Assembly (NCBI RefSeq): GCF_022846255.1
Contig: NZ_AP025682.1
From: Escherichia coli
GTDB taxonomy: Bacteria > Pseudomonadota > Gammaproteobacteria > Enterobacterales > Enterobacteriaceae
DNA length: 64,000 nucleotides
Reading direction: 5' to 3' (one strand)
Shown piece by piece: positions 3,502 to 55,169 of the stretch. The translations under genes were made by a program, and so were the position numbers. Below the pieces are notes generated by a model that had not been told where the DNA came from, searched no databases, and saw only the letters and a program-made list of their open reading frames with translations. The first letter of the stretch is position 1, and every line of letters starts with the position of its first letter.

Positions 3502-3831
3502 ATGAGCAATCTGAATCCATGCATGACGTGTGGTGCCTGTTGTGCATTTTTCCGCGTCTCTTTTTACTGGGCCGAAGCCGACGATGCTGGCGGTACCATT
3601 CCCGCCAGGCTCACTGAACAAATATCCCCTTTTCACCGATGCATGAGCGGTACTAATCAGAAAAATCCCCGATGTATTGCCCTTGCAGGAACACCGGGCA
3701 AAAATGCCTGCTGCACGATATATGAAAATCGATCGTCCACATGCAGAGAATTCGCCATGTCTGGTGAGAACGGAGAAGTCAATGAGGCTTGCAATCGTGC
3801 AAGAGCTAAATACGGGCTAACACCGTTATAA
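3502..3831 (+). CDS. ykgJ: YkgJ, small Cys-rich protein (UPF0153, putative metal-binding), 109 aa
   Basis: Cys-rich motifs ([22 protein letters not shown]); K-12 neighbour of yagU and ecpE. Confidence 0.8.
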
Positions 3832-4079
3832 ATATACAATAATTAATTGCATTGCCCCGCCAGCTGTAATAGCGGGGCTTCGTTTTTCAGGGACAACAAA
3901 ACCTGAAACTTCTTCCATTTTCCAGCAACAATGCCTCTTCTTCTGTAGCGTTCTCCGGATCTACATCATCCTGAAGTAGCGCGATATGATCACTGACTGT
4001 CCGCATCAGAATATGAAAAGCAACGTTTTTAACCTATAAAAATGGCGCTATATTTGCGCCATTTTTATCATTCAAAGCA

Positions 4080-4694
4080 TTATCTATTTGAGCCTAAAGG
4101 GATCTCAGGATCTGGCTCATGGGTAATTCTGTTTCGTAAATCTCTGCGAATAATTTCAATAGACCAGAACCAGACTAAATGTCCAAAAATTTCAGAGACA
4201 TTCTCATACCACGGAAGCTCAAAGAGAGGTGGCGTAAGTCCCATGAGAGGGAATGAAATCATATGAACAAAAAGTTGCGCTAAAGCACCTGCCAGTAAGC
4301 CCTGCCAAAGTTTAATTTTCGGAAATACTTCGGCGACCACACAGTAACCAACGGCAAAAACTATCGAAAAGATTATGTGCGTTACACCAACCCAGTTAAA
4401 GACATGCCCGGCGAAGGTATAAACAGCCGAATTTGGATCTGTCAGTCCCAACCAATCCCGAAGAAAAATGTACGGAGGATTGAGAAAGTTACGGGAGCAA
4501 TCAATTTGGCCTGCAGCCCTGATTAATGATTCCGGACCACACGCTGCATTAAACATATCAACCGGACTACGTGGTGGCAATGGAACTTCTGCCCCCCACT
4601 TAACAAATGCGGAAACAACGCCAGCAATCAGCCCAATGAATGCAGCAAGACCATAACGTCTGCGGTTTGGTGGAGTTTGTTCAAATATATTCAT
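4080..4694 (-). CDS. yagU: Inner-membrane protein YagU (DUF1440), 204 aa
   Basis: Full-length ORF with hydrophobic segments; sequence recognised as YagU. Confidence 0.85.
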
Positions 4695-5082
4695 ATCTAC
4701 CCTGCTTGTACCATTATGTTATACACCTCTTTAGGAGTATTCATAAAACAAGGCAAATGTAAAGAACTGTATTGTTTTGTATAACCACATGGTTACCTAA
4801 TCGCCAATTAATATAAGCTCCATTATTTCTCCATATTTTTATGTTAGAAGTGACAAGGAGAAATGTAATGTTTCTCTCAGAGAATATAAATCATTCCTTT
4901 TGCCCACCTTAATGGTGGGCTTTTTTATGCAAAACCTGAACGTCCTGTGGTATTCCTCTGGCATAATGATTTTCGCGATTAACCAACAACCAGACCAGCA
5001 AAGACGCCACCACAAGCACAGCAACATCCATCAGGCTTGCCACACCCCATGCGTGCGGCTCAAAGCCGCCATGGCATATTAA

Positions 5083-5229
5083 TCCGCTTGCCATTTTCGA
5101 ACAGCTGATTGGTTTAGTCCGGTGTTTCCCTGCTTGCACTTAAAAATGAGCGGATGGGAAACTCTCGAAATGGTTCGTCGATATGCTCACCTCGCACCTA
5201 ATCACCTTACCGAACACGCACGGTAAATA
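5083..5229 (+). pseudogene. 3' remnant of a tyrosine-recombinase (phage-type integrase) gene, about 48 codons, no start
   Basis: Translates to ...[27 protein letters not shown], the typical integrase C-terminus with the RYAHL catalytic-Tyr region; bounded upstream by an in-frame stop; ends 85 bp from the thrW 3' end. Confidence 0.5.
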
Positions 5230-5314
5230 GATTCGATCCTGAACCCATCGGTCCCAAATCTGTCCCAATAAAAAATAAGGAAGGTATTAGTGATGTGTAA
5301 CTTATTGATTTAAA

Positions 5315-5390
5315 TGGTGCCGATAAGAGGAGTCGAACCTCCGACCTTCGCATTACGAATGCGCTGCTCTACCAACTGAGCTATATCGGC
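5315..5390 (-). tRNA. thrW: tRNA-Thr (anticodon CGU)
   Basis: Reverse complement reads GCCGATATAGCTCAGTTGGTAGAGCAGCGCATTCGTAATGCGAAGGTCGGAGGTTCGACTCCTCTTATCGGCACCA: cloverleaf-compatible, CGT anticodon, 3' CCA; sits next to proA as thrW does in K-12. Confidence 0.95.
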
Positions 5391-5504
5391 CCTGAAAGGA
5401 CATGTTCACGAACGTGAATCACGGTGGACAAGGTTAAAACTAACCGGGCGATGCGTCAATGGCCTTGTGAATCAAATGGCTACTTTTGCATCACCCGGTT
5501 TTAT

Positions 5505-6758
5505 TTACGCACGAATGGTGTAATCACCAATGCCGATCCACTTGTAAGTGGTCAGTGCTTCCAGCCCCATTGGGCCACGCGCGTGGAGTTTTTGTGTGCT
5601 TACCGCCACTTCCGCACCCAGTCCAAACTGGCCGCCGTCGGTAAACCGCGTAGAGGCGTTAACGTAAACAGCGGACGAATCCACTTCGTTAACAAAACGC
5701 TGGGCGTTGCGCATATCGCGGGTCAGGATCGCATCGGAGTGTTGTGTGCCGTGTTCACGAATATGGGCGATGGCATCGTCAAGATCGCTGACGATTTTGA
5801 CGTTCAAATCTAATGACAGAAACTCATCGTCATACTCTTCCGCTTTAACAGCCACCACCTTCGCGGGGCCTGTCTGCAACTGCGCCAGCGCAGCTGCATC
5901 TGCGTGTAATGTCACGCCGCTTTCCGCCATTTGTTTGCTTAATGCGGGCAGGAAGCTATCGGCGATGTTTTTATTTACCAGCAACGTTTCTACCGTATTA
6001 CATGTGCTCGGACGCTGAGTTTTCGCGTTGACAATTACTTTCAGGGCTTCAGCGATCTCTGCACTTTCATCAACGTAAATATGGCATACGCCTATACCGC
6101 CTGTGATCACCGGGATTGTCGACTGTTCGCGGCACAGCTTATGCAGCCCAGCGCCACCACGCGGGATCAGCATGTCGATGTATTTATCCATACGCAGCAT
6201 TTCACTGACCAGCGCGCGGTCAGGATTATCAATCGCCTGCACGGCACCCGCCGGTAAGCCACAGGATTTCAGGGCGTCCTGAATCACCGCCACCGTTGCA
6301 GCGTTAGTGCGACAGGTTTCTTTGCCGCCGCGCAGGATCACCGCGTTACCCGTTTTCAGGCACAGCGAAGCGACATCAACCGTCACGTTCGGGCGAGCTT
6401 CATAAATCACGCCAATCACCCCCAGCGGCACGCGACGGCGCTCCAGACGCAGACCACTGTCCAGTACGCCGCCATCGATTACCTGCCCCACCGGATCGGC
6501 GAGATTGCACACCTGGCGCACATCGTCGGCAATGCCTTTCAGCCGTGCGGGCGTCAGTGCCAGACGGTCAAGCATCGCTTCGCTAAGGCCATTGGCACGC
6601 GCGTCTGCAACATCCTGCGCGTTAGCGTTGAGGATACTTTCGCTTTGTGCTTCCAGTTCATCGGCGATTTTTTCCAGCACACGATTTTTTTCGCGGCTGG
6701 AGAGTTGCGCTAATTTATACGAGGCTTGCTTCGCGGCAATGCCCATTTGTTCCAGCAT
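5505..6758 (-). CDS. proA: Gamma-glutamyl phosphate reductase, 417 aa
   Basis: Full-length match to ProA ([38 protein letters not shown]...). Confidence 0.97.
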
Positions 6759-13282: not shown

Positions 13283-13897
13283 TTATCCTTCGATAAAAGC
13301 CATCCCTGTGAACGTTCGTCGCGGGTTGCCACGTTCAATCTGGTGATGGAACATTCGCCGCTGCGATTTCAGCGCCGCGCTATTTTCCTGTTGCTGTTGT
13401 TCCAGCTTCCAGGCAATCAGTAATCGCGCCAGCCGCTTGTTAGCATGCTGACTGCGCTCTGACTGAACCTTCACGCTAATACCGGATGCCAGATGCGTGG
13501 CGCGTACCGCCGAGTCGGTTTTATTGACATGTTGACCGCCCGGCCCCGACGAACGCAGCGTCTCATAACGGATCGCGTCGGATTGTTCCTGCTCATCAGC
13601 GGTAAAACGCCCAATGCCCAGAAACCAGTTTTTGCGCCCATGATGAGGCCGATACGGACTCGGACAAATCCACTGGATAGTGCCACACCAGCTTTCGCTT
13701 AGAGCCCATGCGTTATCGCCATCCAGAGAAATCAGCGCCGAACGCAGTGTGTCAGAGTAGCGACCCGTTTCTGTTTCCAGCACCGTTACCGCGACGTCCT
13801 GTCGGGTAGCTTCTTTAATCAGCCTGTCCAGTGCTTTTCTCACTGCGAGACAACATTCTTCCGGCCCCTGAGCAGAGGAGAGTTGTAGCAAGATCAT
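13283..13897 (-). CDS. prfH: Peptide chain release factor homologue PrfH (RF-H), about 204 aa, apparently intact
   Basis: Class-I release-factor-like sequence with the GGQ motif ([17 protein letters not shown]); start set at [16 protein letters not shown], where the ATG overlaps the rtcB-like stop (ATGA). Confidence 0.8.
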
Positions 13898-15045
13898 CCT
13901 TTTTTCCCTCCACTGTTTTTGAGCGTCAGCACCGGGCGCAGTCGCGCGACAGGAATAATTAACCCAGCCAGCACCAGACATTGCACCACGCTTTCAGCCG
14001 ATTTATAGGCTTGTGGCGCTTCTTCAAAGATGAGTTGTTTATCGCGACAAATTACCCGACTGCCAAGTTCAGTCCGCGAGAGTTGCGTCGCCGTGTATTT
14101 CGCTGCCAGACGCCCTTTACACTCGGTGCGCCCCCATTTACGCCCCGCCCCATGCGCCAGCGAGTGGAGCGTTTTTTCGTTCGCAACAGGTTTAACCAGC
14201 CAGGAGTAATCGCCGCGTGAACCGGGAATAATCACCAGACCGTTGTCATCCGGCGTGGCGCCTTTACGATGCAACCAGCCCTGTTGATCGCCGATTTGGC
14301 ACGCGCTAACAAAGTTATGCGCCACATCCAGAACCGGACTTCCGGTGGCCTTAACTTGTTGCATTATGCGCAAAGCGATCAGCTGGCGATTAATACGCGC
14401 AAACGCCAGCGCATCGTCATGTTCCGCAATATACCGTAGCGCGTCGTCACTGCCTTCAGGCAAACCATGATGCGAAAACGAGGCAATATGCCGCTGTAAA
14501 ATAGACTGCCCCAATCCCCTCGAGCCGCTATGAACCAGCAGTTGCAGATGCTGCGCATCCAGACCAGCCAGTGCAAACAGTTCCGCGTCGATAATTTGAT
14601 CAATCTGTTGCAGTTCTGCGAAGTGGTTACCGCCACCGATGGAGCCAAGCGAGTTGTGCCACGGATGCTGTGCAAATGCTGACGGCAGGTTTTCCTCCAG
14701 CCAGCTTTCTTCAGCAACGTCATCCAGATCTGATAATCGCTTTTCAAACTTATCGGCGTTGTATTTGCGAGCGAGAATATCTGTTTGCCATAGCGCCATG
14801 CCGCAGCCGATATCATTGCCGACCAGTGCCGGGTAAAAACGGCCTACGGAGAAGAACGCTGCGCCAATCGGGTAGCCGCGTCCGGGATGTAAATCTGGCA
14901 TCCCCACAACGCGCTGCATGTTGGGTAAATTTGCCGTGGTGTGTAATTGTTGGATCGCTAAACTCTCGATCCACAGGTCATCAGATGCGATGGTAAATAC
15001 CGCATCGGATAAGGGACGAATATATTTGCCCATGTACCATTCCAT
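13894..15045 (-). CDS. RtcB-family RNA ligase paralogue coupled to prfH (ykfJ region in K-12), 383 aa
   Basis: RtcB-like His/Cys-rich motifs ([22 protein letters not shown]); translationally coupled to prfH. Confidence 0.8.
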
Positions 15046-16430: not shown

Positions 16431-17486
16431 TCATAATCCCAGCACCAGTTGTCTTTCCATTTGAGGGTCAAGTAACGTCACATGCAGCCCCACCAGACGC
16501 ACACCGCGCCCGCCACGGCGTTCATCCCAGGTTTTACGCGCGGTGGCGATTAAGTCAGCTTTATTCAGCCGCGGCCAGACGTGCTCCTGAGTGGTTTGCT
16601 GAAAATCATCAAACTTTAATTTCACCCCCTGGCGAGCAATCAGTAAATCAGGTTTTACCTTTGCCAGACGGCGTTCAAGTTCAGGATACAGCCGCTCGAT
16701 AATCGCTTCACATTCAGACCAGTGATGAATATCTTCCGCCATCGTGCGTTCCACGCCGACGGATTTTCGCAACCGTTCACTGTTAACGTCGCGCTCGTCA
16801 ATCCCCTGACTACGCTCCCACAAAATGCGGCCAAATTTGCCAAAACGTTTGAGCAGAGTCACCAGATCACACTTTTGCACATCACCGCAGGTCCGCAGCC
16901 CCATCGCTTCCAGTTTTGCCGCCGAGACTTTGCCGACGCCGGGAATTTTTGCCAGCGGTAAGGTTTGCAGAAATGCCGGAACTTCTGCCGGCGTAATCAC
17001 AAACTGGCCGTTGGGTTTATTCATGTCGGAGGCGATTTTGGCGAGAAACTTGACCGGCGCAACGCCCGCAGACGCCGTCAGTTGCAGCTCGTTGAAGATC
17101 GTCTGGCGGATTTCCTGGGCGATGAGGGTCGCAGAACCGTGGCAATGGACGCTATCGGTGACATCGAGATAGGCTTCATCCAGTGATAACGGTTCAATGC
17201 GCGAGGTATAGCGCGAGAAAATTTCGCGGATATGATTTGAGGCTTCTTTGTAGGCGTCAAAGCGCCCTGGAAGCAAGGTGAGATGCGGGCATAATTTGAG
17301 CGCCATCCCTGTCGGCATAGCGCTACGTACGCCAAATTTACGCGCGGGATAATTGGCGGTGCTGATTACCCCCCGTCGTTCGCGGCTGCCGCCAATAGCA
17401 ATAGGGATATCGCGCAGGGCGGGATTGTCGCGCATCTCCACCGCTGCGAAAAAGCAGTCCATATCCACATGAATGATTTTACGCAT
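16431..17486 (-). CDS. dinB: DNA polymerase IV (Y-family translesion polymerase), 351 aa
   Basis: Full-length match ([46 protein letters not shown]...). Confidence 0.96.
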
Positions 17487-17500
17487 TGCTCACCTCTCAA

Positions 17501-17520
17501 CACTGGTAAAGTATACAGTG
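17501..17520 (-). promoter_or_regulatory. LexA (SOS) box of the dinB promoter
   Basis: CACTGGTAAAGTATACAGTG contains CTG-N10-CAG with a TATA core, 15 bp upstream of the dinB start. Confidence 0.7.
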
Positions 17521-17556
17521 ATTTCAGGGTTTGAGAAATGCGTAAAGATTCAGCAT

Positions 17557-18480
17557 TTAACGCGTTCGCTGCGAAAGCACCTGCTGCTTATCCAGCTTTT
17601 GCACCAGCGGCTGCACCACTTTATCCCCATGCTGACCAAAGTATTGATACAGCGTATCGGACGCGCTTTTAGTCAGCACCATAATCTCAATGCGCCGGTT
17701 GCCCGCGCTTTGCGGATTTTTCGCGTCCAGCAGCATCTGGTCCGCCATTGCGCTCACCTGCATCACTTTATCTTCCGGCATTCCTGCCTCTTCCAGCACC
17801 CGACGAGCCGAAAGCGCGCGGTCACCCGAAAGGTTCCAGTTGTTGTAGATATTGTTTTTGTAGGCCATCGCATCGGTATGCCCGGTAATAATAATTTTGT
17901 TATCGAGCGAGTCGAACACTGGCGCGAGCTCCACCAGCAGCGTTTTAAAGAACGGCATAATCTGCGCGCTGCCGCGTTCGAACATATTGCGATTCTGGTC
18001 GTCTTTAATCAGCACGCGTAATCCCTGCGGGACAATCTCCATCTCCAGATTCGCTTCCATATGCGCATCACGGGCAATGGTGTTGATGCTGGTTGCCAGC
18101 TCACCAAGCTCGGTGGCGGATTTCTTCTTCAGCAGCGCCGTTTTCTCGTTGACGTCGCGCGCTTTTTTCTCCGTCTCTTCCGGCACCGCCACGGTGGCAG
18201 GTTTTGACGGATGAGACGGGCTGATTTTATTTAACGGCGACAGCCCACCACCGTTAAAAATCGACTGCCCGTGCAGCGCGGCGATAATGCTTTCACGCTC
18301 GGATTTACTGACGCTATTGACAATCCACAGCGTCATAAATAGCGCCATCATCGCCAGGGTAAAGTCGGCGAACGCTACCTTCCACGCCCCGCCGTGGTGC
18401 CCGGCATGATTCTTTTTGATCTGCCGCCGGACGATGGTGGTTTTTGCCCCACGCTCGCGGCGGTTGCCCGTCTTTCTCAT
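17557..18480 (-). CDS. lafU: Lateral flagellar motor stator protein LafU (MotB-like, OmpA C-terminal domain); mbhA counterpart
   Basis: Single TM segment (WKVAFADFTLAMMALFMTLWIV) plus OmpA-like peptidoglycan-binding C-terminus; start set at MRKTGNRRE just after the lafT stop. Confidence 0.85.
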   Translation of the reverse strand: MRKTGNRRERGAKTTIVRRQIKKNHAGHHGGAWKVAFADFTLAMMALFMTLWIVNSVSKSERESIIAALHGQSIFNGGGLSPLNKISPSHPSKPATVAVPEETEKKARDVNEKTALLKKKSATELGELATSINTIARDAHMEANLEMEIVPQGLRVLIKDDQNRNMFERGSAQIMPFFKTLLVELAPVFDSLDNKIIITGHTDAMAYKNNIYNNWNLSGDRALSARRVLEEAGMPEDKVMQVSAMADQMLLDAKNPQSAGNRRIEIMVLTKSASDTLYQYFGQHGDKVVQPLVQKLDKQQVLSQRTR

Positions 18481-18482
18481 GC

Positions 18483-19346
18483 TTATTCTTGCTCCAGCAT
18501 CGCATTCACCCATGCATCGAGGTTGGCGAAGGTCGGTTTGGACGCCAGATGCAGCAGCTTACGCCCGGCGTCCACCGCCAGCAGCGTCGGTTTGCCGCCC
18601 GCCTGGGCCACCAGCACGGTACGCACACACTCCAGCAGCGAATGTTCCGCCCGCGCCTGCTGTTCCATGGCGTTGGCGAGCGGGTCCATCAGGCAGTAGC
18701 AAATAAACACGCCTAAAAATGTCCCCACCAGCGCTGCCGCCACTTTCAGGCCAATCAGGGCGATAGAACCGTCAATTGACTGCATGGTGATGATGATGCC
18801 CAGCACTGCCGCGCAAATACCAAATCCCGGCATCGCTTCGGCGGTCCGTTGCAGCGAGCGTGACGGCGTTAACAGCGACTCTTCAGCGGTGTCCAGCTCC
18901 TGATCGAGAATGCCTTCCAGTTCATGGGCGTCGATTTTACCCATCGCCATCAGGCGAAAGTTATCGGCAATAAAAGTCACCAGCCGCTTCTGGGTTAACA
19001 CCAGCGGGTATTTCTGGAAAACGGTACTCTCTTCCGGCTGCTCAATATGCTGATCCAACATCCGCAGACCGCCGTTTTGTACCATTTCAAGCAACTCATA
19101 CAGGCACATTAATAGCTGGCGCTGAAACTCCGGCCCGAGCTGTTTTTTACTGATCACGCCTTTAATTTGATGGGCAATCTCTTTCAGCACATGTTTCGGG
19201 TTCCCAATAATCATCGCCCCGAAACCCGCACCCAAAATAATGATCATTTCCGCCGGTTGCCAGATAGCCACTAATTGGCCGCCCGCTTCAAAATAACCGC
19301 CAAATACGCAGCCGAGCACCACCAGTAAACCTAATATTTTTTGCAT
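18483..19346 (-). CDS. lafT: Lateral flagellar motor stator protein LafT (MotA-like), 287 aa
   Basis: Four-TM MotA/TolQ/ExbB-type sequence immediately upstream of the MotB-like gene. Confidence 0.85.
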   Translation of the reverse strand: MQKILGLLVVLGCVFGGYFEAGGQLVAIWQPAEMIIILGAGFGAMIIGNPKHVLKEIAHQIKGVISKKQLGPEFQRQLLMCLYELLEMVQNGGLRMLDQHIEQPEESTVFQKYPLVLTQKRLVTFIADNFRLMAMGKIDAHELEGILDQELDTAEESLLTPSRSLQRTAEAMPGFGICAAVLGIIITMQSIDGSIALIGLKVAAALVGTFLGVFICYCLMDPLANAMEQQARAEHSLLECVRTVLVAQAGGKPTLLAVDAGRKLLHLASKPTFANLDAWVNAMLEQE

Positions 19347-19358
19347 GATTTCTTCACT

Positions 19359-20078
19359 TTAATTCGGATAGACAAAATCACGAATTTTCTGCGCGATCTG
19401 TTTATTCAGTTGACAAATTCGGGCCTCGGTTAGCCCTAATACCAGCGCAATCTCTTTGAGATTCATCTCATGCTGGTAATACATGGAGAGGATCAGTTGC
19501 TCTTTTTCGCTTAATTGTGAAAGCGCGTGTTGCAGCATTTTCTGCGTGACAAACTGATCTTCCAGGTCTCTGCCAGCAAGCGGAATACCCGGTCCTTCGC
19601 CGTTCAGCAGTTCGTCCAGGCTGGCGAGCGTTTCCGCCCCTTCCAGTTGCTGATATTCGAGATAATCTTCATGCGAGATCCCTTCCTCAGCCAGCTCCTG
19701 CCACTCCGGTTCGTGCCCCAGTTTTTTACGCGTTTCGCGAATCAGGTCTTTCATCTGATGATATTTCTGTCGCAGCTGGCGCGGTCGCCAGTCGAGAGCG
19801 CGCAGCTCATCCAGGATCGCACCGCGAATACGGTGCACGGCATAGCCCGCAAAACCTTCGTCCGGCAGCCCATAGCGACGAATGGCCTTCAACAGCCCCA
19901 TTAACGCCGTTTGTTCCATATCCTGACGGTCAATAATGCAATTACACTGCGGGGCAAGGTGCCGCACCACTTTACGCACCAACGGTAAATAGGCCTGCAA
20001 GTAGTGGCTCTCCTGCTGCGGGGTTAATACCGGCGCGGCAGCAAATTCTTCTGACTCGAATAATACGTCCTGTAGCAT
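19359..20078 (-). CDS. lafS: Lateral flagellar sigma-28 (FliA-family) LafS, 239 aa
   Basis: Sigma-70 family regions 2 and 4 recognisable (e.g. LKEIALVLGLTEARICQLNKQ HTH). Confidence 0.85.
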   Translation of the reverse strand: MLQDVLFESEEFAAAPVLTPQQESHYLQAYLPLVRKVVRHLAPQCNCIIDRQDMEQTALMGLLKAIRRYGLPDEGFAGYAVHRIRGAILDELRALDWRPRQLRQKYHQMKDLIRETRKKLGHEPEWQELAEEGISHEDYLEYQQLEGAETLASLDELLNGEGPGIPLAGRDLEDQFVTQKMLQHALSQLSEKEQLILSMYYQHEMNLKEIALVLGLTEARICQLNKQIAQKIRDFVYPN

Positions 20079-20097: not shown

Positions 20098-20565
20098 TTA
20101 CTGGAAGACCACTTTTTTCACCAGTAAATCCTTATACGGTGCGCTCATTTTGCGACGCTGAAGATCTTTCTTTAACGCATCCGAAATCAGTTTGCGGATG
20201 GCAGATATTTTCATGCCGCGCAAATCTTCAAATTTCATTTCCGTCAGGCATTCAACTGCAATACTTTGATACAGAGGCTCCTGATGTTTTATTTTTTCCG
20301 CCTCTTTGTCACTGGCGACCACCATCACTAATTCCGCCGACAAATAATGATCCGCGCCGTTGTTGTCATGCAAAGTGACAATGGTTTCCGGCAGCGTCAC
20401 AAATACGCTCTTGCTCTCATCCAGAGCTTCCACCGATTCCGTTTGCGCGGCGGTAGTCGGTTTTCCTTTTCCGGCATAATGATGCCAGACACTCCATCCT
20501 GCTCCAGCGCCGACCACCAACGCCAGAACGGCGCTGACCACGCCTGCCACCACGATTTTCTTCAT
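20098..20565 (-). CDS. lafF: FliL-like basal-body-associated protein LafF, 155 aa
   Basis: N-terminal TM followed by FliL-like domain; position between the fliK-like gene and the sigma gene. Confidence 0.75.
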   Translation of the reverse strand: MKKIVVAGVVSAVLALVVGAGAGWSVWHHYAGKGKPTTAAQTESVEALDESKSVFVTLPETIVTLHDNNGADHYLSAELVMVVASDKEAEKIKHQEPLYQSIAVECLTEMKFEDLRGMKISAIRKLISDALKKDLQRRKMSAPYKDLLVKKVVFQ

Positions 20566-20572
20566 ATTGCCT

Positions 20573-21634
20573 TTACACTTTGATCAAAACGGATTCGTTC
20601 TGTTGAAATTGAGGCGCATCATCAAGCTGTAAGGCGGCACTCACCTCTTCCTGCTGATGGCCCGACTGTTGTTGCTGCTGCGACTGCCCTTCGGAGGAGA
20701 CCTGTACGTTCACCTCCATAAAATTTTGCGCCGTCAGATGCTGGCGGAGATCGTCGCTAAACTGCTGTAACGCGCGGCAAACTTCACTTTGGTTCGCGCC
20801 GATGTGCACCATCAGTTTGCCGTTGTCGAGTTGTACGGCGATCTCGAGCTTGCCAAGCGACGGTGGATCGAGACGGATGGTGGAGATCTGCTGTTGTTTG
20901 TTGAGCTGAAAGTGGATCTGATCTTTCAACAGCGTCGTCAGTTTTTCGCCCAGTTCGTCGATCGAAAGCGTGGCTGGTTTGGCGACAATCTCCTGATGAT
21001 CGCTGACCAGCTCCGGCGTCTTAACCTGCAACACCGCACGCGCAATAACCAGTTCGCTGTCCGACACTTTTTCCGTTTTACGCTCGACCTGCGGGCGCGC
21101 GTTCACACGGGTTAGTTCAGGTTTCGGGCGAGCTGGCTGTGTTGAGACGCGCGGCTGCGTCGGTGCAATGGCATGTAAATCTTCACTGGCGTAAGTCGCC
21201 AGTCTGGCCTGCTGTTCGGGTTTCGCCTGCGGCAACTGACCGATCAGCTCCTGCAACTGCGGCGGCAACGGCGTGAGTTCCTGCTGCTGCGTCGGGCGTT
21301 GCGCCGCGTTTTGCACCACCGCTTTCGTCAATTGCTGGATAACCGGCGATGTTGCGACGTTTCGCGGCTGCGGCGTGTCCTGATGCGGCGCGGCAGGTTG
21401 CGGAAGTAACAGCGCCATTAGCGCCTGCATCGCCACCGGATCGTTCTCCTGCGGGCGCGTCGCCTGTTGCTGACTGGTTTTTGCGCTATGAACGCGCTCC
21501 GCCACCGCCGCGACCGCCATTTTCGGCAGGGTAAACGCGGGCGCGTTTTCACTACTCACCGGCGGTAAAATATCCGCTTTCAGCGACGCCGTTTCCGCAA
21601 GTGTTCCGAGCGTGGCAAGCAATGCCGGATTCAT
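20573..21634 (-). CDS. lafE: Hook-length control protein LafE (FliK-like), 353 aa
   Basis: Pro/Gln-rich low-complexity middle and FliK-like C-terminal domain; conserved position. Confidence 0.7.
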   Translation of the reverse strand: MNPALLATLGTLAETASLKADILPPVSSENAPAFTLPKMAVAAVAERVHSAKTSQQQATRPQENDPVAMQALMALLLPQPAAPHQDTPQPRNVATSPVIQQLTKAVVQNAAQRPTQQQELTPLPPQLQELIGQLPQAKPEQQARLATYASEDLHAIAPTQPRVSTQPARPKPELTRVNARPQVERKTEKVSDSELVIARAVLQVKTPELVSDHQEIVAKPATLSIDELGEKLTTLLKDQIHFQLNKQQQISTIRLDPPSLGKLEIAVQLDNGKLMVHIGANQSEVCRALQQFSDDLRQHLTAQNFMEVNVQVSSEGQSQQQQQSGHQQEEVSAALQLDDAPQFQQNESVLIKV

Positions 21635-21942
21635 GACTTCTCCGAAAGTAAATTAACAATTGAGTAGGCCAGTACGCCTTCCTGATGCCGCTGATGCTGT
21701 TCCATACGCGCCTTCAACACTTCTGCACGCTGCTCGCGCCGTTTAATCAGGGCATTAAACGCGCCGTACAGCTGCGCCTTCACCGCACACAACTGCGCCG
21801 CGTCGGTTTCCGCCGCCACGTAATCGTGAAACTGGCGCATCAACTGCTGATGCAGTGCCGGAAGGCGTCGCCAGCGTTGCTTGTCGAGGGCTTCGTTCAT
21901 CGCTTCAACCAGCGCGAAAAGTTGCCTGCGTTGTTTTTCCAT
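21631..21942 (-). CDS. lafD: LafD, small helical protein in the FliT position (probable export chaperone)
   Basis: Start set at MEKQRRQL, 5 nt after the lafC stop (ORF track extends into lafC); function by position only. Confidence 0.55.
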   Translation of the reverse strand: MEKQRRQLFALVEAMNEALDKQRWRRLPALHQQLMRQFHDYVAAETDAAQLCAVKAQLYGAFNALIKRREQRAEVLKARMEQHQRHQEGVLAYSIVNLLSEKS

Positions 21943-21946
21943 CGTC

Positions 21947-22339
21947 TTAACCCAGCTTGCCCGAAAGCCCTTCCCAGCCTTCACGCAGGTTGCTTAAGAT
22001 CAGCATCACTTCATCGATTTTCTCTGCCGACAGTTCGCCGCTGGCCTCATACAAGCGATACACACAGTGGTCATAGAGGCGCGAAAGGTTGACCACCAGC
22101 TCGCCGCCAGTTTCAAACTCCAGCGAACTGGTGAGCGCATTGAGAATGTCGATGCATTTATTGATGCTCTGGGCTTTCTTCTCGAAACGCCGCCCTTCAA
22201 TATGGCTTTTGGCGCGTTCCAGCTCGTCCATCAGACCAGAAAACAGCACCAGCACCAGTTCCAGAGGCGATGCCGCCGCAGTACGCGCCGCGAGATCGAT
22301 CTCTTTATATTGCGAATAGCCGTCCTGTACTTGGTACAT
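21947..22339 (-). CDS. lafC: Flagellin-specific chaperone LafC (FliS-like), 130 aa
   Basis: FliS-like sequence (MYQVQDGYSQYKEIDLAARTAAASPLELVLVLFSGL...). Confidence 0.85.
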   Translation of the reverse strand: MYQVQDGYSQYKEIDLAARTAAASPLELVLVLFSGLMDELERAKSHIEGRRFEKKAQSINKCIDILNALTSSLEFETGGELVVNLSRLYDHCVYRLYEASGELSAEKIDEVMLILSNLREGWEGLSGKLG

Positions 22340-22361
22340 CTTTAGGGATATTCCTTCTGAG

Positions 22362-23678
22362 TTACGCGAATGCCGCCATGCTGGCTTTCATGGTGTACAC
22401 CTCGACCAGCGTGTTGGTGTACTCCTCGAGATAACGGTCGTAGTTGGCGTTATAGGTATCAGTAAGCTGATCGCCTTCGTCCTGAATTTTGCTCATCTGA
22501 TCGTCAATGTTCTGCTGGCGCAGGGTGATGATGCCGTTGCTGGAGTCCGTGTAGGTGTTAATCAGGTCGTCCATCTGTGCCACCATGCTGTTGTCGCCAA
22601 CGAAAATAGAGGTCAGACCGTCAGGATTTTTCGCCATTTCGTCGTTGAACTGGTCGGAGTCAATCTGTAAGTGGCCGTGAGAATCAAGCGTGATGCCATA
22701 GTCAACAATCGACACCCCGTTGTAGCTGGCATGGGCGATATCATCGAGCTGGTTCGCCAGTGAGCTGAGTCCGGCGTCACCCGCAAATACCCCGGCGCTG
22801 GTACTGTCATCACCGTGGGTGGTCAACGAATCAACCGTATCAATCAAGGTGTTATAAGCATCAACAAAGGTCTGTACTTTCTCCTGGCTGGCGCTGGAAT
22901 CTTCGCTGATGTTAAAGGTAGTGAGATCGCTGTCAGAATCGCTGACTTCGGTGAAAGTCATGGTGACGCCGGGGATCACATCATCAAAGGTATTGCTGCT
23001 ATTAGTGATCTCTGGCCCCGTGGCGCTGCCGAGATGAATAATCGCGTCCTGGGCGGAGGAAACATCCGTAGCAACAGGCGCGCTGGCGCTGTCGTTGCTG
23101 GCGTCATGCCCCGTTACGCTCACCGAAAATGCGCTCTGCGCCCCGGTGCTATCGGAGGTGAGCATAATCGTGGTGGTGCCGTCGGTTTTTACCAGTGCCG
23201 CCGACACGCCCGGATTGTCATCAGAGTCGTTAATCGCATTCACCAGTTCACTGGCGTCGATAAAACCGTCGCCGTCACCGTTCTGATCTGCCGCCGACAG
23301 ATCAATATCCATGGTGCTGTCGCCCATCGTCAGTTCGAAGGTGCCGGTAGCGGAAAAGGCGTCGTCGCCCATACTGAACGTGGTTTGCTGCCCCTGTGCC
23401 AGTTGCTCAACGAAAAATGAGTAGCTTCCCGCCTGCACCTGCGAGTTAGCGGAAACGGTCGCCGAGTCATTATTGCTGGTGGCGGCAAACGTCACCGGGC
23501 CGTCAGTATCGCTGTTCAGCGCGTCAACGGCGCTCTGAAAATCGCTCAACGCTGAGCTGAGCGAGTCCAGGCCGCTGCTTTCAGCATCCAGCTCGCTCTG
23601 CTTCTCCTGCAAATTGGCTGCCTGAGTGGCAACATCCGCATAAGCGATTTCTTGCGCAATGGTTCTTGGGTTGATCAT
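22362..23678 (-). CDS. lafB: Filament cap protein LafB (FliD / HAP2-like), 438 aa
   Basis: FliD-like N- and C-terminal heptad regions; first gene after a sigma54 promoter motif. Confidence 0.8.
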   Translation of the reverse strand: MINPRTIAQEIAYADVATQAANLQEKQSELDAESSGLDSLSSALSDFQSAVDALNSDTDGPVTFAATSNNDSATVSANSQVQAGSYSFFVEQLAQGQQTTFSMGDDAFSATGTFELTMGDSTMDIDLSAADQNGDGDGFIDASELVNAINDSDDNPGVSAALVKTDGTTTIMLTSDSTGAQSAFSVSVTGHDASNDSASAPVATDVSSAQDAIIHLGSATGPEITNSSNTFDDVIPGVTMTFTEVSDSDSDLTTFNISEDSSASQEKVQTFVDAYNTLIDTVDSLTTHGDDSTSAGVFAGDAGLSSLANQLDDIAHASYNGVSIVDYGITLDSHGHLQIDSDQFNDEMAKNPDGLTSIFVGDNSMVAQMDDLINTYTDSSNGIITLRQQNIDDQMSKIQDEGDQLTDTYNANYDRYLEEYTNTLVEVYTMKASMAAFA

Positions 23679-23710
23679 TGATGACTCCGGATAACGATGT
23701 CAGGTTATTG

Positions 23711-23725
23711 GCAAAAGGCGTGCCA
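23711..23725 (-). promoter_or_regulatory. Sigma54 (-24/-12) promoter motif upstream of lafB
   Basis: Minus strand reads TGGCACgccttTTGC, a perfect match to TGGCAC-N5-TTGC; predicted start site about 20 nt upstream of the lafB ATG, which has a GGAG Shine-Dalgarno. Confidence 0.6.
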
Positions 23726-23842
23726 ATAATTTTTATGTGAATAATCAATAAATTGAAAAAGGGGCGGAAATGGTGTTTCCGGTCTGGCGGAAAAAAGCCT
23801 GCCGCTGAAAGCACAACACCGCCCGCAGGCGGTGTTGTTCGT

Positions 23843-47469: not shown

Positions 47470-48456
47470 TCAGGAGAAAACTTCGATACCGTGCTTGCGC
47501 ATGGAGGCCAGTCGATAGCGCAGTGCGCGCGGGGTAATGCCTAACAGGTCGGCAATTTTGCTGCGGTTGCCCTGATATTTACGCATCAGGTCGGCGATAT
47601 ATTGATACTGCGCACTTCGTCCGGCCTGGCCTAAATCGCTGGTTTCCGCAACAGATACGGAGGGCTGAACAGGCCATTGCAGTTCACTGTGATCGGCAAC
47701 GTCTATTTCCGGCAGGCCTAAGGCATCCGGGAAAATCACGCCGTCGCGGTTTAAAATCATTCCCCGCTGAATGGCGTTCTCCAGCTGACGCACGTTGCCG
47801 GGCCAGCGGTAATTGAGCAGCGCCCGGCGGGTAGATTCTGAAAGGGTGATATTTTTCACCAGCACCGTGGAGTATTTTTTAATAAATGACTCTGCCAATG
47901 GAATAATATCGTTCAGACGTTCACGCAGCGGCGGCATGGTAATAGGAATTACCGCCAGACGATAATAGAGATCTTCACGAAAACGCCCGGCGGCAACTTC
48001 CTGTTCAAGGTTTTTATTGGTACAGGCAATCAGGCGAAAATTGAGTTTAATTTGTCGGTTGCTGCCTAATCGCTCAACCTGTTGTTCCTGCAACACGCGT
48101 AATATTTTGGCCTGAAGCGCCAGCGGCATATCGCCAATTTCATCGAGTAATAAGGTGCCGTTATTCGCCAGTTCCATTTTTCCTGGCACGCTGGCAATTG
48201 CGCCGGTAAATGCACCTTTGTCGTAGCCAAATAAGGTAGATTCCAGCATATTTTCCGGGATCGCCGCGCAGTTCACGCCGACATAGGGTGCGCTTTCATT
48301 TTCACCAAAGGCTACGGTGTGAATATATTTTGCCACGCACTCTTTGCCCGCGCCGGTTTCGCCCTGAATGAGCACCGGCACGTTAAATGCGGCGACACGC
48401 TTTGCCAGAGTAAAAGCGTTAATGCTGGAAGCGGCAGTTGCAATAAGTTCAGACAT
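47470..48456 (-). CDS. lafK: Sigma54-dependent transcriptional activator LafK, 328 aa, AAA+ domain plus C-terminal HTH, no receiver domain
   Basis: Walker A GETGAGKE, GAFTGA motif (ESTLFGYDKGAFTGA), Walker B LLLDEIGDMP, FREDLYYRL, C-terminal HTH (NRSKIADLLGITPRALRYRL); in-frame stop 25 codons upstream of the ATG. Confidence 0.85.
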   Translation of the reverse strand: MSELIATAASSINAFTLAKRVAAFNVPVLIQGETGAGKECVAKYIHTVAFGENESAPYVGVNCAAIPENMLESTLFGYDKGAFTGAIASVPGKMELANNGTLLLDEIGDMPLALQAKILRVLQEQQVERLGSNRQIKLNFRLIACTNKNLEQEVAAGRFREDLYYRLAVIPITMPPLRERLNDIIPLAESFIKKYSTVLVKNITLSESTRRALLNYRWPGNVRQLENAIQRGMILNRDGVIFPDALGLPEIDVADHSELQWPVQPSVSVAETSDLGQAGRSAQYQYIADLMRKYQGNRSKIADLLGITPRALRYRLASMRKHGIEVFS

Positions 48457-51866: not shown

Positions 51867-52995
51867 CAGCAGCGAAGAAAAAACAGAGAAACCCTCGGCG
51901 CAAAAGCTGCGTAAAGCGCGTGAAGAGGGGCAGCTACCGCGCTCGAAGGATATGGGGCTGGCGGCGAGCCTGTTTGCAGCGTTTGTGGTGATCTCCAGTA
52001 GTTTTCCGTGGTATGCCGATTTTGTGCGCGAGAGTTTTATCAGCGTGCATCAGTACGCACAGGAGATTAATAACCCGCAGGTGATCGGTCAGTTTCTGCG
52101 CCATCACCTGTTAATTCTCGGCAAGTTTATCCTTACGTTGCTGCCGATGCCCGCCGCCGCACTGCTCTCCTCACTGGTGCCCGGCGGCTGGCTGTTTCTG
52201 CCGAAAAAAATCCTCCCGGATTTCAGCAAAATCAGCCCGTTAAAAGGCATTGGGCGACTGTTTTCCAGCGAACATCTGGCGGAAACGGGGAAGATGACAG
52301 TGAAGTCGGTGGTGGTGCTGGTAATGCTGTGGGTAAGCCTGCGCAATAACTTTGCCGCCTTTCTCGGCCTGCAGGCGCTGCCGTTCAAACTGGCGATGAA
52401 TGATGGATTATCGCTCTACGCCAGCGTGATGCGCAACTTTGTCATCCTGTTTATCTTCTTTGCGTTAATCGACGTGCCGCTGGCGAAAGCCCTGTTCACC
52501 AAAGGGCTGAAGATGACCAAGCAGGAGCTGAAAGAAGAGTACAAAAATCAGGAAGGCAAGCCGGAAGTGAAGGCGCGCGTGCGGCGGCTGCAACGGCAAC
52601 TGGCGATGGGGCAAATTCGCAAAGTGGTGCCGAAAGCCAACGTGGTGATCACCAACCCGACCCACTACGCCGTGGCGTTACAGTATGACTCATCACGTGC
52701 CGCCGCACCGTTTGTGGTGGCGAAAGGCACCGATGAAATCGCCCTCTATATTCGCCAGGTCGCCACTGAAAATCAGGTGGAAGTGGTGGAGTTCCCGCGA
52801 CTCGCGCGCTCGGTTTACTACACCACCCAGGTGAACCAGCAAATTCCGTTTCAGCTTTACCGGGCCATCGCCCACGTTCTGACCTACATCCTGCAAATGA
52901 AACACTGGCGCGAGGGCGCACAGCCGCGCCCGGCCCTGAACAGACATATTTCCATTCCCAAAGAGGTACTTAAACTGGATGGCGAAAACAACTAA
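51856..52995 (+). CDS. lfhB: Export apparatus protein LfhB (FlhB-like), 379 aa
   Basis: FlhB-like sequence including the NPTH autocleavage motif (VVITNPTHYAVAL). Confidence 0.9.
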   Translation: MADSSSEEKTEKPSAQKLRKAREEGQLPRSKDMGLAASLFAAFVVISSSFPWYADFVRESFISVHQYAQEINNPQVIGQFLRHHLLILGKFILTLLPMPAAALLSSLVPGGWLFLPKKILPDFSKISPLKGIGRLFSSEHLAETGKMTVKSVVVLVMLWVSLRNNFAAFLGLQALPFKLAMNDGLSLYASVMRNFVILFIFFALIDVPLAKALFTKGLKMTKQELKEEYKNQEGKPEVKARVRRLQRQLAMGQIRKVVPKANVVITNPTHYAVALQYDSSRAAAPFVVAKGTDEIALYIRQVATENQVEVVEFPRLARSVYYTTQVNQQIPFQLYRAIAHVLTYILQMKHWREGAQPRPALNRHISIPKEVLKLDGENN

Positions 52996-55072
52996 ATCGT
53001 TCCTCGCGCCGCTGCGCGGCGGCAATCTCGGCGTGCCGTTGGTGATCCTGTGTATTCTGGCGATGGTTATTCTGCCGCTGCCGCCTGCGCTGCTGGATAT
53101 TCTGTTCACCTTCAACATTGTGCTGGCGGTGATGGTGCTGCTGGTGGCCGTGTCGGCGAAAAGGCCGCTGGAATTCAGCCTGTTCCCGACCATTTTGCTG
53201 ATCACCACCTTAATGCGTCTGACGCTTAACGTTGCTTCTACGCGCGTGGTGCTGCTACACGGGCATCTCGGCGCGGGCGCGGCGGGTAAGGTGATTGAGT
53301 CGTTTGGTCAGGTGGTGATTGGCGGCAACTTTGTCGTCGGTTTCGTGGTATTTATCATCCTGATGATCATCAACTTTATCGTCGTAACCAAGGGGGCCGA
53401 GCGTATTTCCGAGGTTTCTGCCCGCTTTACCCTGGACGCGATGCCCGGCAAACAGATGGCGATTGACGCCGATCTTAACGCCGGGTTGATCAACCAGACG
53501 CAGGCGCAAACCCGGCGTAAAGATGTCGCCAGCGAGGCCGATTTCTACGGCGCAATGGACGGGGCATCAAAATTTGTGCGCGGGGACGCCATCGCCGGGA
53601 TGATGATTCTGGCGATCAACCTGATCGGCGGCGTCTGTATCGGCATCTTCAAATACAACCTGAGCGCCGACGCCGCCTTCCAGCAATATGTGCTGATGAC
53701 TATCGGCGATGGGCTGGTGGCGCAAATCCCTTCCCTGCTGCTCTCCACCGCGGCGGCGATTATCGTCACCCGCGTCAGCGATAACGGTGATATCGCCCAT
53801 GACGTGCGTAATCAGTTGCTGGCAAGCCCGTCGGTTCTCTACACCGCCACTGGAATTATGTTCGTGCTGGCGGTGGTGCCGGGAATGCCGCATTTCCCGT
53901 TCCTGATGTTCAGCGCCCTGCTTGGTTTTACCGGCTGGCGGATGAGCAAGCGCCCGCAAGCGGCGGAGGCGGAAGAGAAAAGCCTCGAAACGCTAACCCG
54001 TACGATGACAGAAACCAGCGAGCAACAGGTCAGTTGGGAAACTATTCCGCTGATCGAACCTATCAGTTTAAGCCTCGGCTACAAACTGGTGGCGCTGGTG
54101 GATAAAGCGCAGGGCAACCCGCTCACCCAGCGTATTCGCGGCGTACGTCAGGTGATTTCCGACGGCAACGGCGTGCTGCTGCCGGAGATCCGTATTCGGG
54201 AAAACTTCCGTCTCAAGCCCAGCCAGTACGCCATTTTCATCAACGGCATTAAGGCTGATGAAGCGGATATTCCGGCGGATAAACTGATGGCCCTGCCCTC
54301 CAGCGAAACCTACGGCGAGATTGACGGCGTACTGGGGAATGACCCGGCATATGGGATGCCGGTCACCTGGATTCAGCCTGCGCAGAAAGCGAAGGCGCTG
54401 AATATGGGGTATCAGGTGATCGACAGCGCCAGCGTGATTGCCACCCATGTGAACAAGATTGTGCGCAGCTATATTCCTGACCTCTTTAACTATGACGATA
54501 TTACGCAGTTGCATAACCGCCTGTCGTCGATGGCACCGCGACTGGCGGAAGATTTGAGCGCGGCACTCAATTACAGCCAATTGCTGAAAGTGTACCGGGC
54601 GCTGCTGACCGAAGGCGTTTCCCTGCGCGATATCGTCACCATCGCCACCGTGCTGGTCGCCAGTAGTGCGGTGACCAAAGATCATATTCTGCTGGCGGCA
54701 GATGTGCGCCTGGCGCTGCGGCGCAGCATTACCCATCCGTTCGTTCGCAAGCAGGAGCTGACGGTGTATACGCTGAATAATGAGCTGGAAAATCTGCTGA
54801 CCAACGTGGTGAATCAGGCGCAACAGGCCGGCAAAGTGATGCTCGACAGCGTGCCAGTGGACCCGAATATGCTCAACCAGTTCCAGAGTACGATGCCGCA
54901 GGTAAAAGAGCAGATGAAAGCGGCGGGGAAAGATCCGGTGCTGCTGGTGCCTCCGCAGCTGCGCCCTTTGCTGGCGCGCTATGCAAGGTTGTTTGCGCCG
55001 GGGCTGCATGTGCTGTCGTATAACGAAGTGCCGGATGAGTTGGAGTTGAAGATAATGGGGGCGTTGAGTTGA
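52979..55072 (+). CDS. lfhA: Export gate protein LfhA (FlhA-like; fhiA counterpart), 697 aa
   Basis: FlhA-like N-terminal TM domain and large cytoplasmic domain, full length. Confidence 0.92.
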   Translation: MAKTTKSFLAPLRGGNLGVPLVILCILAMVILPLPPALLDILFTFNIVLAVMVLLVAVSAKRPLEFSLFPTILLITTLMRLTLNVASTRVVLLHGHLGAGAAGKVIESFGQVVIGGNFVVGFVVFIILMIINFIVVTKGAERISEVSARFTLDAMPGKQMAIDADLNAGLINQTQAQTRRKDVASEADFYGAMDGASKFVRGDAIAGMMILAINLIGGVCIGIFKYNLSADAAFQQYVLMTIGDGLVAQIPSLLLSTAAAIIVTRVSDNGDIAHDVRNQLLASPSVLYTATGIMFVLAVVPGMPHFPFLMFSALLGFTGWRMSKRPQAAEAEEKSLETLTRTMTETSEQQVSWETIPLIEPISLSLGYKLVALVDKAQGNPLTQRIRGVRQVISDGNGVLLPEIRIRENFRLKPSQYAIFINGIKADEADIPADKLMALPSSETYGEIDGVLGNDPAYGMPVTWIQPAQKAKALNMGYQVIDSASVIATHVNKIVRSYIPDLFNYDDITQLHNRLSSMAPRLAEDLSAALNYSQLLKVYRALLTEGVSLRDIVTIATVLVASSAVTKDHILLAADVRLALRRSITHPFVRKQELTVYTLNNELENLLTNVVNQAQQAGKVMLDSVPVDPNMLNQFQSTMPQVKEQMKAAGKDPVLLVPPQLRPLLARYARLFAPGLHVLSYNEVPDELELKIMGALS

Positions 55073-55102
55073 TGGGGGAGACTATATAAGGTCTCGGACT
55101 GT

Positions 55103-55127
55103 CCCCTCGCCCCTTTGGGGCGAGGGA
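55103..55127. repeat. Perfect hairpin repeat unit between convergent lfhA and yafL
   Basis: CCCCTCGCCCC-ttt-GGGGCGAGGG; related to units of the compound repeat at 29572 and 38862; no U-run, so not called a terminator. Confidence 0.4.
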
Positions 55128-55169
55128 GAAAAACGTGTACGACTTTAACTTTTTCGCAGTATTGCCGTC

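Follow-up and report, generated by a model that had tools for sequence, protein, structure and literature searches.

The lafU gene stands at the end of the Flag-2 lateral flagellar unit lafB–lafU and directly upstream of dinB in a 64,000-nucleotide stretch of Escherichia coli DNA, which we call the window. The question that this junction raises is whether RNA polymerase leaving lafU runs on into dinB-yafNOP, and whether such read-through matters for the production of DNA polymerase IV (Pol IV) and the YafNO and YafP proteins. The genes on either side and the spacer between them are as follows.

17557 to 18513, minus strand: lafU, MotB-type stator protein of Flag-2 (longest open reading frame; NCBIfam NF005273, 1.4e-174; TAA stop at 17559-17557)
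17487 to 17556, minus strand: lafU–dinB spacer of 70 nt, read from the sequence, identical in K-12 MG1655 and without an intrinsic terminator
16431 to 17486, minus strand: dinB, DNA polymerase IV (NCBIfam NF002677, 1.4e-164), with its ATG at 17486
16379 to 16086, minus strand: yafN (NCBIfam match)
16083 to 15685, minus strand: yafO (NCBIfam match)
15675 to 15223, minus strand: yafP (NCBIfam match)

Both lafU and dinB lie on the minus strand and are co-directional. The sequence-only reading had put the LexA box of dinB at 17501..17520, 36 nt from the lafU stop, with 70 nt between lafU and the dinB ATG on a common strand, and these positions and distances proved exact when read from the sequence. 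The 36 nt between stop and box run from 17556 to 17521, and the −35 element of the dinB promoter starts 19 nt past the stop. At equivalent annotated loci the RefSeq start of lafU corresponds to window position 18480 (307 aa, 3 nt past motA), as against 18513 for the longest open reading frame; moving the start from 18513 to 18480 leaves the junction finding unaffected. The lafU–dinB junction is an already known, annotated and ordinary E. coli gene boundary.

The unit from which read-through would come extends upstream as listed here.

18483 to 19346, minus strand: lafT, MotA-type stator protein, which overlaps or abuts lafU (TIGR03818, 2.4e-112)
19359 to 20078, minus strand: lafS, FliA/WhiG-type sigma-28 factor of Flag-2 (NF009091, 3.8e-133)
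20098 to 23678, minus strand: lafB (FliD), lafC (FliS), lafD, lafE (FliK-like) and lafF (FliL), from NCBIfam matches and neighbourhood
23710 to 23725, minus strand: putative sigma-54-type promoter motif TGGCACGCCTTTTGCC, 47 nt ahead of lafB and in agreement with the consensus at 10 of 11 positions
23765 to 23781, minus strand: terminator-like hairpin after lafA, CGGAAACACCATTTCCG followed by CCCCTTTTTC, between lafA and lafB (consensus scan)

The intergenic gaps across lafB–lafU are 22, −38, −4, 7, 19, 12 and −31 nt, and this tight packing makes one transcription unit likely. Treating lafB to lafU as an operon, as had been done from the sequence alone, is thus reasonable: no gap exceeds 22 nt, a sigma-54 motif lies upstream, and a gene for a LafK-type sigma-54 activator is found at 47470-48456. 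Genes for LafA, FliD, FliS and full-length LfhA are also present. The unit probably starts at the sigma-54 promoter at 23725 and would be LafK dependent. LafS, LafT and the MotB/OmpA-like LafU stand in that order at the end of the locus, as in the published arrangement lafWZABCDEFSTU (PMC6993521), and the content and order of lafA, lafB-F, lafS, lafT and lafU are shared with Flag-2 cluster 3 of E. coli 042 and other Enterobacterales (Ren et al. 2005; PMC6993521). A relaxed scan for sigma-28 promoters inside lafU gave one site, TAACG-N13-GCCGTTAA at 18256, which we treated as a chance match. In a K-12 FliA ChIP-seq table, which starts at 265447, no site was listed near lafU or dinB, and the specificity of FliA may differ from that of LafS. 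A Vibrio review yielded nothing on the promoter classes of lateral operons. In the ST131 strain EC958, Flag-2 flagellin was not detected in broth or in soft agar, at 28 or 37 °C (PMC4637896).

The sequence-only reading had also described the spacer as free of any obvious intrinsic terminator. A consensus scan of the minus strand of 17487-17556 found no terminator-like site, and the segment 17575..17525 folded at only −5.9 kcal/mol (z = 0.15 relative to shuffled sequences), so that this description holds on both counts. The best candidate in a search for hairpins followed by T residues was the following.

17551 to 17586, minus strand: weak, imperfect 36-nt hairpin across the lafU stop codon, −9.3 kcal/mol, with the tail AAUCUUUA

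We rejected this hairpin as a lafU terminator on the grounds of its energy, its tail and its 3′ arm, which differs in E. whittamii and in E. coli SCPM-O-B-8794. Neither a GC-rich stem-loop just 3′ of the stop nor a U-tract abutting a stem was found at the end of lafU. The lafU loci of Citrobacter and Kluyvera served as a positive control for the same search. At 8 of 10 loci of Citrobacter and Kluyvera ascorbata it returned a hairpin 7–14 nt past the lafU stop, with folding energies of −11.5 to −17.9 kcal/mol and a tail rich in T, and in two further clades it returned hairpins of −13.8 to −22.2 kcal/mol after lafU with long T runs. The terminator tails at the comparator loci L021, L029, L024 and L031 contain T runs of 5–9. 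The missing terminator in Escherichia is informative, because orthologous lafU genes elsewhere carry one. No known RNA family was recognised in the spacer, both matches being far under the gathering scores.

A polymerase crossing the spacer would run through the dinB promoter and its operator, which are arranged in the following order.

17532 to 17537, minus strand: −35-like hexamer TTCTCA of the dinB promoter, 16 nt from the −10 hexamer (consensus scan)
17510 to 17515, minus strand: −10 hexamer TATACT, within the LexA box (consensus scan)
17501 to 17520, minus strand: LexA operator (SOS box) CACTGTATACTTTACCAGTG, overlapping the −10 hexamer and the start site (sequence, conservation and PMC2814082)
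17504, minus strand: dinB transcription start, within the LexA box and 6 nt past the −10 hexamer, transferred from K-12 coordinate 250880 (PMC6131387, supplement file 4)
17493 to 17496, minus strand: Shine-Dalgarno core GAGG of dinB, read from the sequence

The core palindrome of the operator, CTG-N10-CAG with an AT-rich centre, is CTGTATACTTTACCAG at 17518-17503. By hand count, the box and the idealised 20-mer disagree at 7 positions, and a search with that 20-mer allowing 3 mismatches gave no match; the pattern was too strict, and searches with the core motif were used instead. The motif CTGTAT-N7-CAG is unique in the 64 kb, yet 23 of 100 shuffled sequences contain at least one copy, and the LexA motif by itself is statistically unremarkable in 64 kb. 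Its core, CTGTATA...CAGT, does not vary in sequence or position among 25 of 25 aligned regions upstream of enterobacterial dinB genes, and CTTCTCA or a near variant occupies the −35 position in most of these 25 aligned lineages. The K-12 dinB ATG is at 250898 and the spacer is identical, which gives a dinB leader of 18 nt. SMRT-Cappable-seq of K-12 reported a dinB-yafN-yafO unit from 250880 and a yafNOP unit from 251972 (PMC6131387). SOS induction of yafNO in K-12, where the spacer sequence is the same, needs the dinB promoter, and yafNO also has a promoter of its own (PMC2814082). In K-12, yafN-yafO(-yafP) is co-transcribed with dinB and is also served by a yafN-proximal promoter (PMC2814082, PMC6131387).

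The distribution of the junction was surveyed from both sides. A scan for LafU in one genome per species gave 32 loci. In Escherichia (E. coli, E. whittamii and two further species) dinB begins 70 nt after lafU, and in Phytobacter 74 nt after it. In Citrobacter and K. ascorbata dinB lies about 770 nt past lafU, and the gap holds the terminator and an open reading frame of 215 aa (ORF215) that has no Pfam match. At no fewer than 15 further lafU loci, dinB is missing from the nearest 3 kb; most genera with Flag-2 thus differ from the window in that their lafU is not adjacent to dinB. Citrobacter and K. ascorbata share with the window orthologous lafU and dinB genes on a common strand and in a common neighbourhood, and homology in the dinB promoter and LexA box starts at the −35; unlike Escherichia, they have ORF215 and, at the 8 of 10 loci given above, the lafU terminator. 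Pairwise alignment with Citrobacter placed the homology breakpoints at window positions 17578 and 17537/17519, Phytobacter being collinear with Escherichia. Between these breakpoints, Escherichia and Phytobacter have 40 nt where Citrobacter and K. ascorbata have about 750 nt, which comprise C-terminal codons of lafU, its strong terminator and ORF215. The absence of the terminator traces to this indel of about 750 bp.

A survey from the dinB side added 12 more genera, in which the upstream neighbour of dinB is either a divergent gene or the co-directional nqrF-nqrM. The divergent neighbour is a YkuD-family gene in Salmonella, Enterobacter kobei, Kosakonia and Superficieibacter, and other genes take this place in Yokenella and Entomohabitans. 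The nqrM–dinB gaps (91–144 nt) in six genera contain a terminator-like or REP-like stem-loop in 6 of 6 cases. ORF215 in Citrobacter and K. ascorbata abuts the dinB promoter with no terminator. Terminator-less co-directional abutment on dinB is thus limited to a few lineages: the upstream partner is lafU in Escherichia and Phytobacter, whereas Citrobacter and K. ascorbata have ORF215 in this place. Considered as one operon, lafB...lafU-dinB-yafNOP shows a single strand, short gaps and no internal terminator, and the neighbourhood is not conserved across the taxa that possess both parts. In the Flag-2 locus literature that we found (De Maayer et al. 2020, PMC6993521), which describes the locus and its deletion, transcription across lafU–dinB is not discussed.

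Within E. coli the junction is nearly universal and the operon is not. A 601-nt junction sequence was present at no less than 80% coverage in 5385 of 5426 complete genomes, whereas the lafT–lafU 5′ region, used as the marker for an intact stator operon, was present in 1310 of the 5426 (24%). The remaining 76% are without the operon and carry the lfhA'-'lafU deletion as in K-12. In K-12 the Flag-2 cluster is deleted from lfhA to lafU, leaving a promoterless 3′ fragment of lafU (lafU', also mbhA, b0230) without a start codon, and nothing transcribes into the junction with dinB (b0231). The spacer, LexA box, promoter hexamers, Shine-Dalgarno sequence and start codon are all identical to those of the window, and the downstream operon is the same; unlike K-12, the window has the full lafB–lafU unit intact. 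Three Flag-2-positive E. coli of varied origin all have the 70-nt gap, and their spacers differ from that of the window at no more than 1 nt. Comparison of the window, K-12 and these three strains thus revealed no spacer difference between Flag-2-positive and Flag-2-negative strains. The same spacer occurs with and without Flag-2, and it has therefore not diverged according to whether transcription enters it.

RNA that begins upstream of the dinB promoter contains a complementarity to the dinB start codon, made up of two segments.

17537 to 17546, minus strand: 5′ arm TTTACGCATT, preceding the dinB start site, of a perfect inverted repeat of 10 bp
17478 to 17487, minus strand: 3′ arm AATGCGTAAA of the repeat, complementary to the 5′ arm and covering the dinB ATG and codons 2-3

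Because the start site at 17504 comes after the 5′ arm, only upstream-initiated RNA carries this arm; the native mRNA is without it. The predicted probability that the dinB AUG is unpaired was 0.00 on RNA begun at or ahead of the lafU stop, compared with 0.71 on the native leader. Davis, Simons and Kleckner reportedly described in 1985 a fold-back inhibition of IS10 transposase translation on read-through transcripts. The logic there is alike, in that the start-codon region pairs with a 5′ arm that precedes the element's own start site and only external transcripts are blocked, and the dinB repeat has this geometry. Unlike the IS10 case, the dinB stem is a thermodynamic prediction only, and is neither conserved outside Escherichia nor accompanied by covariation. 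Conservation was assessed with RNAalifold and explicit counting of pairs on the upstream regions of 25 dinB genes, which represent four genomic contexts. The stem is kept in all Escherichia examined, two changes in E. albertii retaining the pairing through G-U, and Phytobacter, Kluyvera and Citrobacter have analogous pairings to the AUG region formed by different sequences. Across the 25 lineages RNAalifold recovered the LexA palindrome only, with no compensatory pairs, and we rejected a conserved RNA hairpin insulating dinB. When the window hairpin was projected on the alignment, its outer helix was paired in 52% and its covariation score was that of shuffled alignments (174/500). The middle stem, a complementarity between the −35 and the Shine-Dalgarno sequence, is present also where the upstream gene is divergent, and probably reflects two elements conserved independently of each other. 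Perfect 10-bp inverted repeats with loops of up to 60 nt number 12 in the 64-kb window, compared with 2.7 in shuffled sequences. The stem over the AUG is a feature specific to Escherichia and possibly fortuitous; as modelled, it would oppose a coupling of flagella to Pol IV.

The explanation that we favour, and hold to be reasonably probable, is that the terminator-less junction is an accident of genome architecture and not a regulatory device, and that read-through is leaky but inconsequential. Because 40 nt stand in place of the roughly 750 nt that include the lafU terminator, a polymerase leaving lafU would meet no intrinsic stop signal, and some read-through RNA would be expected whenever the normally silent lafB–lafU operon is active. 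The output of dinB would remain under its own LexA-controlled sigma-70 promoter, with mRNA of the 18-nt leader carrying dinB-yafNOP. LexA, bound 36 bp past the lafU stop, would probably act as a roadblock that blunts read-through, and on RNA begun upstream the stem 17546-17537:17487-17478 would hide the dinB AUG, so that dinB would go untranslated and lie open to Rho. Read-through would then have no adaptive role, and the junction as it stands is a textbook example of a terminator-less boundary made by an indel beside a gene with its own well-characterised promoter.

An effective stop without a canonical terminator is a different explanation of the same junction, and one that we consider unlikely. 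Here LexA would block the polymerase and Rho, possibly with Mfd, would release it, and uninduced cells would contain no significant spanning transcript. The operator is directly in the path, and LexA is cited as pausing RNA polymerase in vitro (PMC10310618, PMC4132739). The situation resembles that of known protein roadblocks (LacI, and LexA in vitro) in having a repressor site in the transcription path downstream of a co-directional gene; it differs from them in that the documented role of the dinB operator is promoter repression, a roadblock role here being our inference. The spacer is the only local stretch with more C than G (C/G of 1.06–1.54 in 78-nt windows around 17600-17560), which favours Rho, and the dinB AUG, predicted to be paired on a spanning RNA, would leave that RNA untranslated. 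Among the rows listed from the K-12 table of full-length transcripts (PMC6131387), none describes a unit that runs from b0230 into b0231, the dinB units in the K-12 datasets begin at 250880 only, and a K-12 Term-seq supplement assigned no 3′ ends to dinB, lafU or yafN. These K-12 transcript data weigh little, because the lafU remnant there has neither promoter nor start codon. Against an effective stop, Rho would have little room to load, since only about 60 nt ahead of the dinB Shine-Dalgarno sequence are untranslated. A ribosome ending at the lafU stop would closely trail the polymerase, and trailing ribosomes are described as aiding roadblock passage (PMC4132739); a LexA roadblock would moreover vanish upon SOS induction.

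The sequence-only reading had gone further, and considered it conceivable that read-through from lafB–lafU would link lateral flagellar expression to Pol IV and toxin-antitoxin expression, so that Pol IV, YafNO and YafP would rise without SOS when lateral flagella are made. The common strand of lafU and dinB, the lack of a terminator between them and the retention of this arrangement throughout Escherichia and Phytobacter speak for it, as does ORF215 of Citrobacter, which likewise abuts the dinB promoter without a terminator; a ciprofloxacin phenotype of the Keio delta-mbhA mutant (see below) hints that upstream transcription matters. We nevertheless found no support for the proposed link and think it quite improbable. 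The operon is lost from 76% of complete E. coli genomes, and these keep a spacer identical to that of strains which retain it; close relatives have a strong terminator after lafU, and LexA is in the path. The regulatory link is unsupported because the adjacency is lineage-specific, confined to Escherichia and Phytobacter and absent from most Flag-2-bearing genera, and because Flag-2 expression was undetected in EC958 (PMC4637896). On read-through RNA the dinB AUG is predicted to be sequestered, and dinB overexpression is reported to impede growth (PMC4564189), which argues against selection for constitutive spill-over. The converse proposal is that the 10-bp inverted repeat is a selected fold-back insulator, which leaves only LexA-controlled transcripts translatable and guards against Pol IV made by read-through. 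It would account for the perfect 10-bp stem that covers the AUG and whose 5′ arm precedes the mapped start site, for the presence of the stem in all Escherichia examined, with G-U pairing kept by the two changes in E. albertii, and for the fact that Phytobacter and K. ascorbata, where a co-directional gene likewise precedes dinB without a terminator, have independent upstream sequences of their own that are complementary to the AUG region. We give it little credence, since the 25 lineages show neither a consensus structure nor covariation and the middle stem is found also beside divergent upstream genes. Two pairing-preserving transitions would arise by chance with a probability of about 13–16% by our own estimate, AUG accessibility did not differ significantly from that of shuffled sequences (fraction 0.15), and inverted repeats of this size, with the 12 found, are not rare in the window. 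The full form of the coupling is very improbable: LafK/sigma-54 transcription of lafB–lafU through the LexA operator into dinB-yafNOP would raise Pol IV and the YafO module without DNA damage and so couple surface motility to mutagenesis, or, as a variant, the Escherichia-specific start-codon hairpin would be an insulator selected against exactly that. If read-through did raise Pol IV and YafNO when lateral flagella are made, about one E. coli strain in four would possess a route to stress-type mutagenesis that does not depend on SOS, and the effect would bear on many Pol IV studies that used marker cassettes in lafU.

Besides the comparative terminator evidence, the mapping of the start site and the predicted fold-back stem, a lead from the Keio library is a useful by-product of the analysis. 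In a 2026 screen of that library, delta-mbhA, which removes the K-12 lafU remnant, was confirmed as strongly ciprofloxacin-sensitive; dinB was not mentioned, and polar effects of the kan cassette were ruled out for other mutants only (PMC13131330). Given the Keio design, the phenotype is in our view most simply explained by transcription from the kan cassette entering dinB-yafNOP. If the phenotype does come from read-through of the cassette, the dinB operon can be influenced by transcription that arrives from lafU. This lead, which is no evidence on Flag-2, suggests that the junction is permeable to upstream transcription. In practice the junction mainly calls for caution with cassettes placed in the lafU remnant, which are positioned to transcribe into dinB.

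In K-12, dinB lies directly downstream of what is left of lafU. Two features of this segment are:

Window 17557-18404: counterpart of the K-12 pseudogene remnant lafU' (mbhA, b0230).
Window 18230-18256, minus strand: sigma-28-like motif TAACG-N13-GCCGTTAA, within lafU, in the portion that K-12 retains.

A 2026 screen of the Keio collection reported strong ciprofloxacin sensitivity for delta-mbhA (PMC13131330). The paper does not mention dinB, and polar effects of the kan cassette were ruled out only for mutants other than delta-mbhA (PMC13131330). Read-through from the kan cassette into dinB-yafNOP is a likely explanation of the delta-mbhA phenotype. The motif within lafU is at most a candidate site for LafS; the FliA sites mapped by ChIP-seq in K-12 do not include it (PMC4183435).

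The arrangement around dinB was compared in loci from other genomes, with positions given within each locus:

L015 (Escherichia albertii NBRC 107761), 3750-6693: lafU-dinB region with a REP-like element and an interruption of dinB.
L034 (E. coli AR_0013), 4415-5919: dinB followed by yafP, without yafN or yafO.
L005, 4090-4737, and L029, 3894-4538: ORF of 214-215 aa, located after the lafU terminator and before dinB.
L041-L046, 1056-1200: nqrM-dinB gaps in six genera with dinB downstream of nqrF-nqrM.

In AR_0013, yafP lies directly 3' of dinB and overlaps it, and yafN and yafO are missing; E. coli strains thus differ in the toxin-antitoxin portion of the dinB operon. dinB itself appears to carry a disruptive insertion in E. 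albertii NBRC 107761, because prophage-like DNA interrupts it after approximately codon 5 (between ATGCGTAAAATCAT and AATCTTC). The prophage-like DNA includes a 575-aa tape-measure-like ORF, and the REP-like element separates lafU from the dinB promoter. A 444-aa ORF from a Logan assembly (P0065) joins an OmpA-family domain (PF00691) to full DinB domains, the latter at 99% identity, and is either a mutational lafU'-dinB fusion or an artefact of assembly or gene calling.

The 214-215-aa ORF is conserved in Citrobacter and Kluyvera ascorbata and contains CxxC pairs; a Pfam search with it gave no match. Only 64-67 nt, without a terminator, separate its end from dinB in these genomes, and it may therefore be co-transcribed with dinB. 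Where dinB follows nqrM, a stem-loop, terminator-like or REP-like, was visible ahead of the dinB promoter in all six gaps. These promoters carry a -35-like CTTCTCA, a LexA box and a GAGGG Shine-Dalgarno sequence similar to those of Escherichia, the resemblance being weaker in Buttiauxella than in the other genera.

Escherichia sp. E1V33 is a nearer match to the window than most E. coli are, with 99% identity in LafU and 100% in DinB. Of 5423 E. coli records, no more than 83 match the junction at 99% identity or better, which suggests that the window comes from a cryptic Escherichia clade or from an atypical lineage within E. coli.

Elsewhere in the window the neighbourhood includes:

52979-55072, plus strand: lfhA.
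55170-55928, minus strand: yafL, after a 97-nt gap.
13283-15045, minus strand: RtcB-family RNA ligase gene and an overlapping ORF, downstream of yafP.

The lfhA-yafL gap (55072-55170) contains an inverted repeat (55104/55117) with 10-bp arms and a loop of 3 nt; rayT, which K-12 and AR_0013 carry between these two genes, is missing here. The RtcB-family gene is intact (383 aa; NF007153, 4.7e-193), whereas in K-12 it is the pseudogene ykfJ. The overlapping ORF (13283-13981; 232 aa) occupies the position of prfH in AR_0013.
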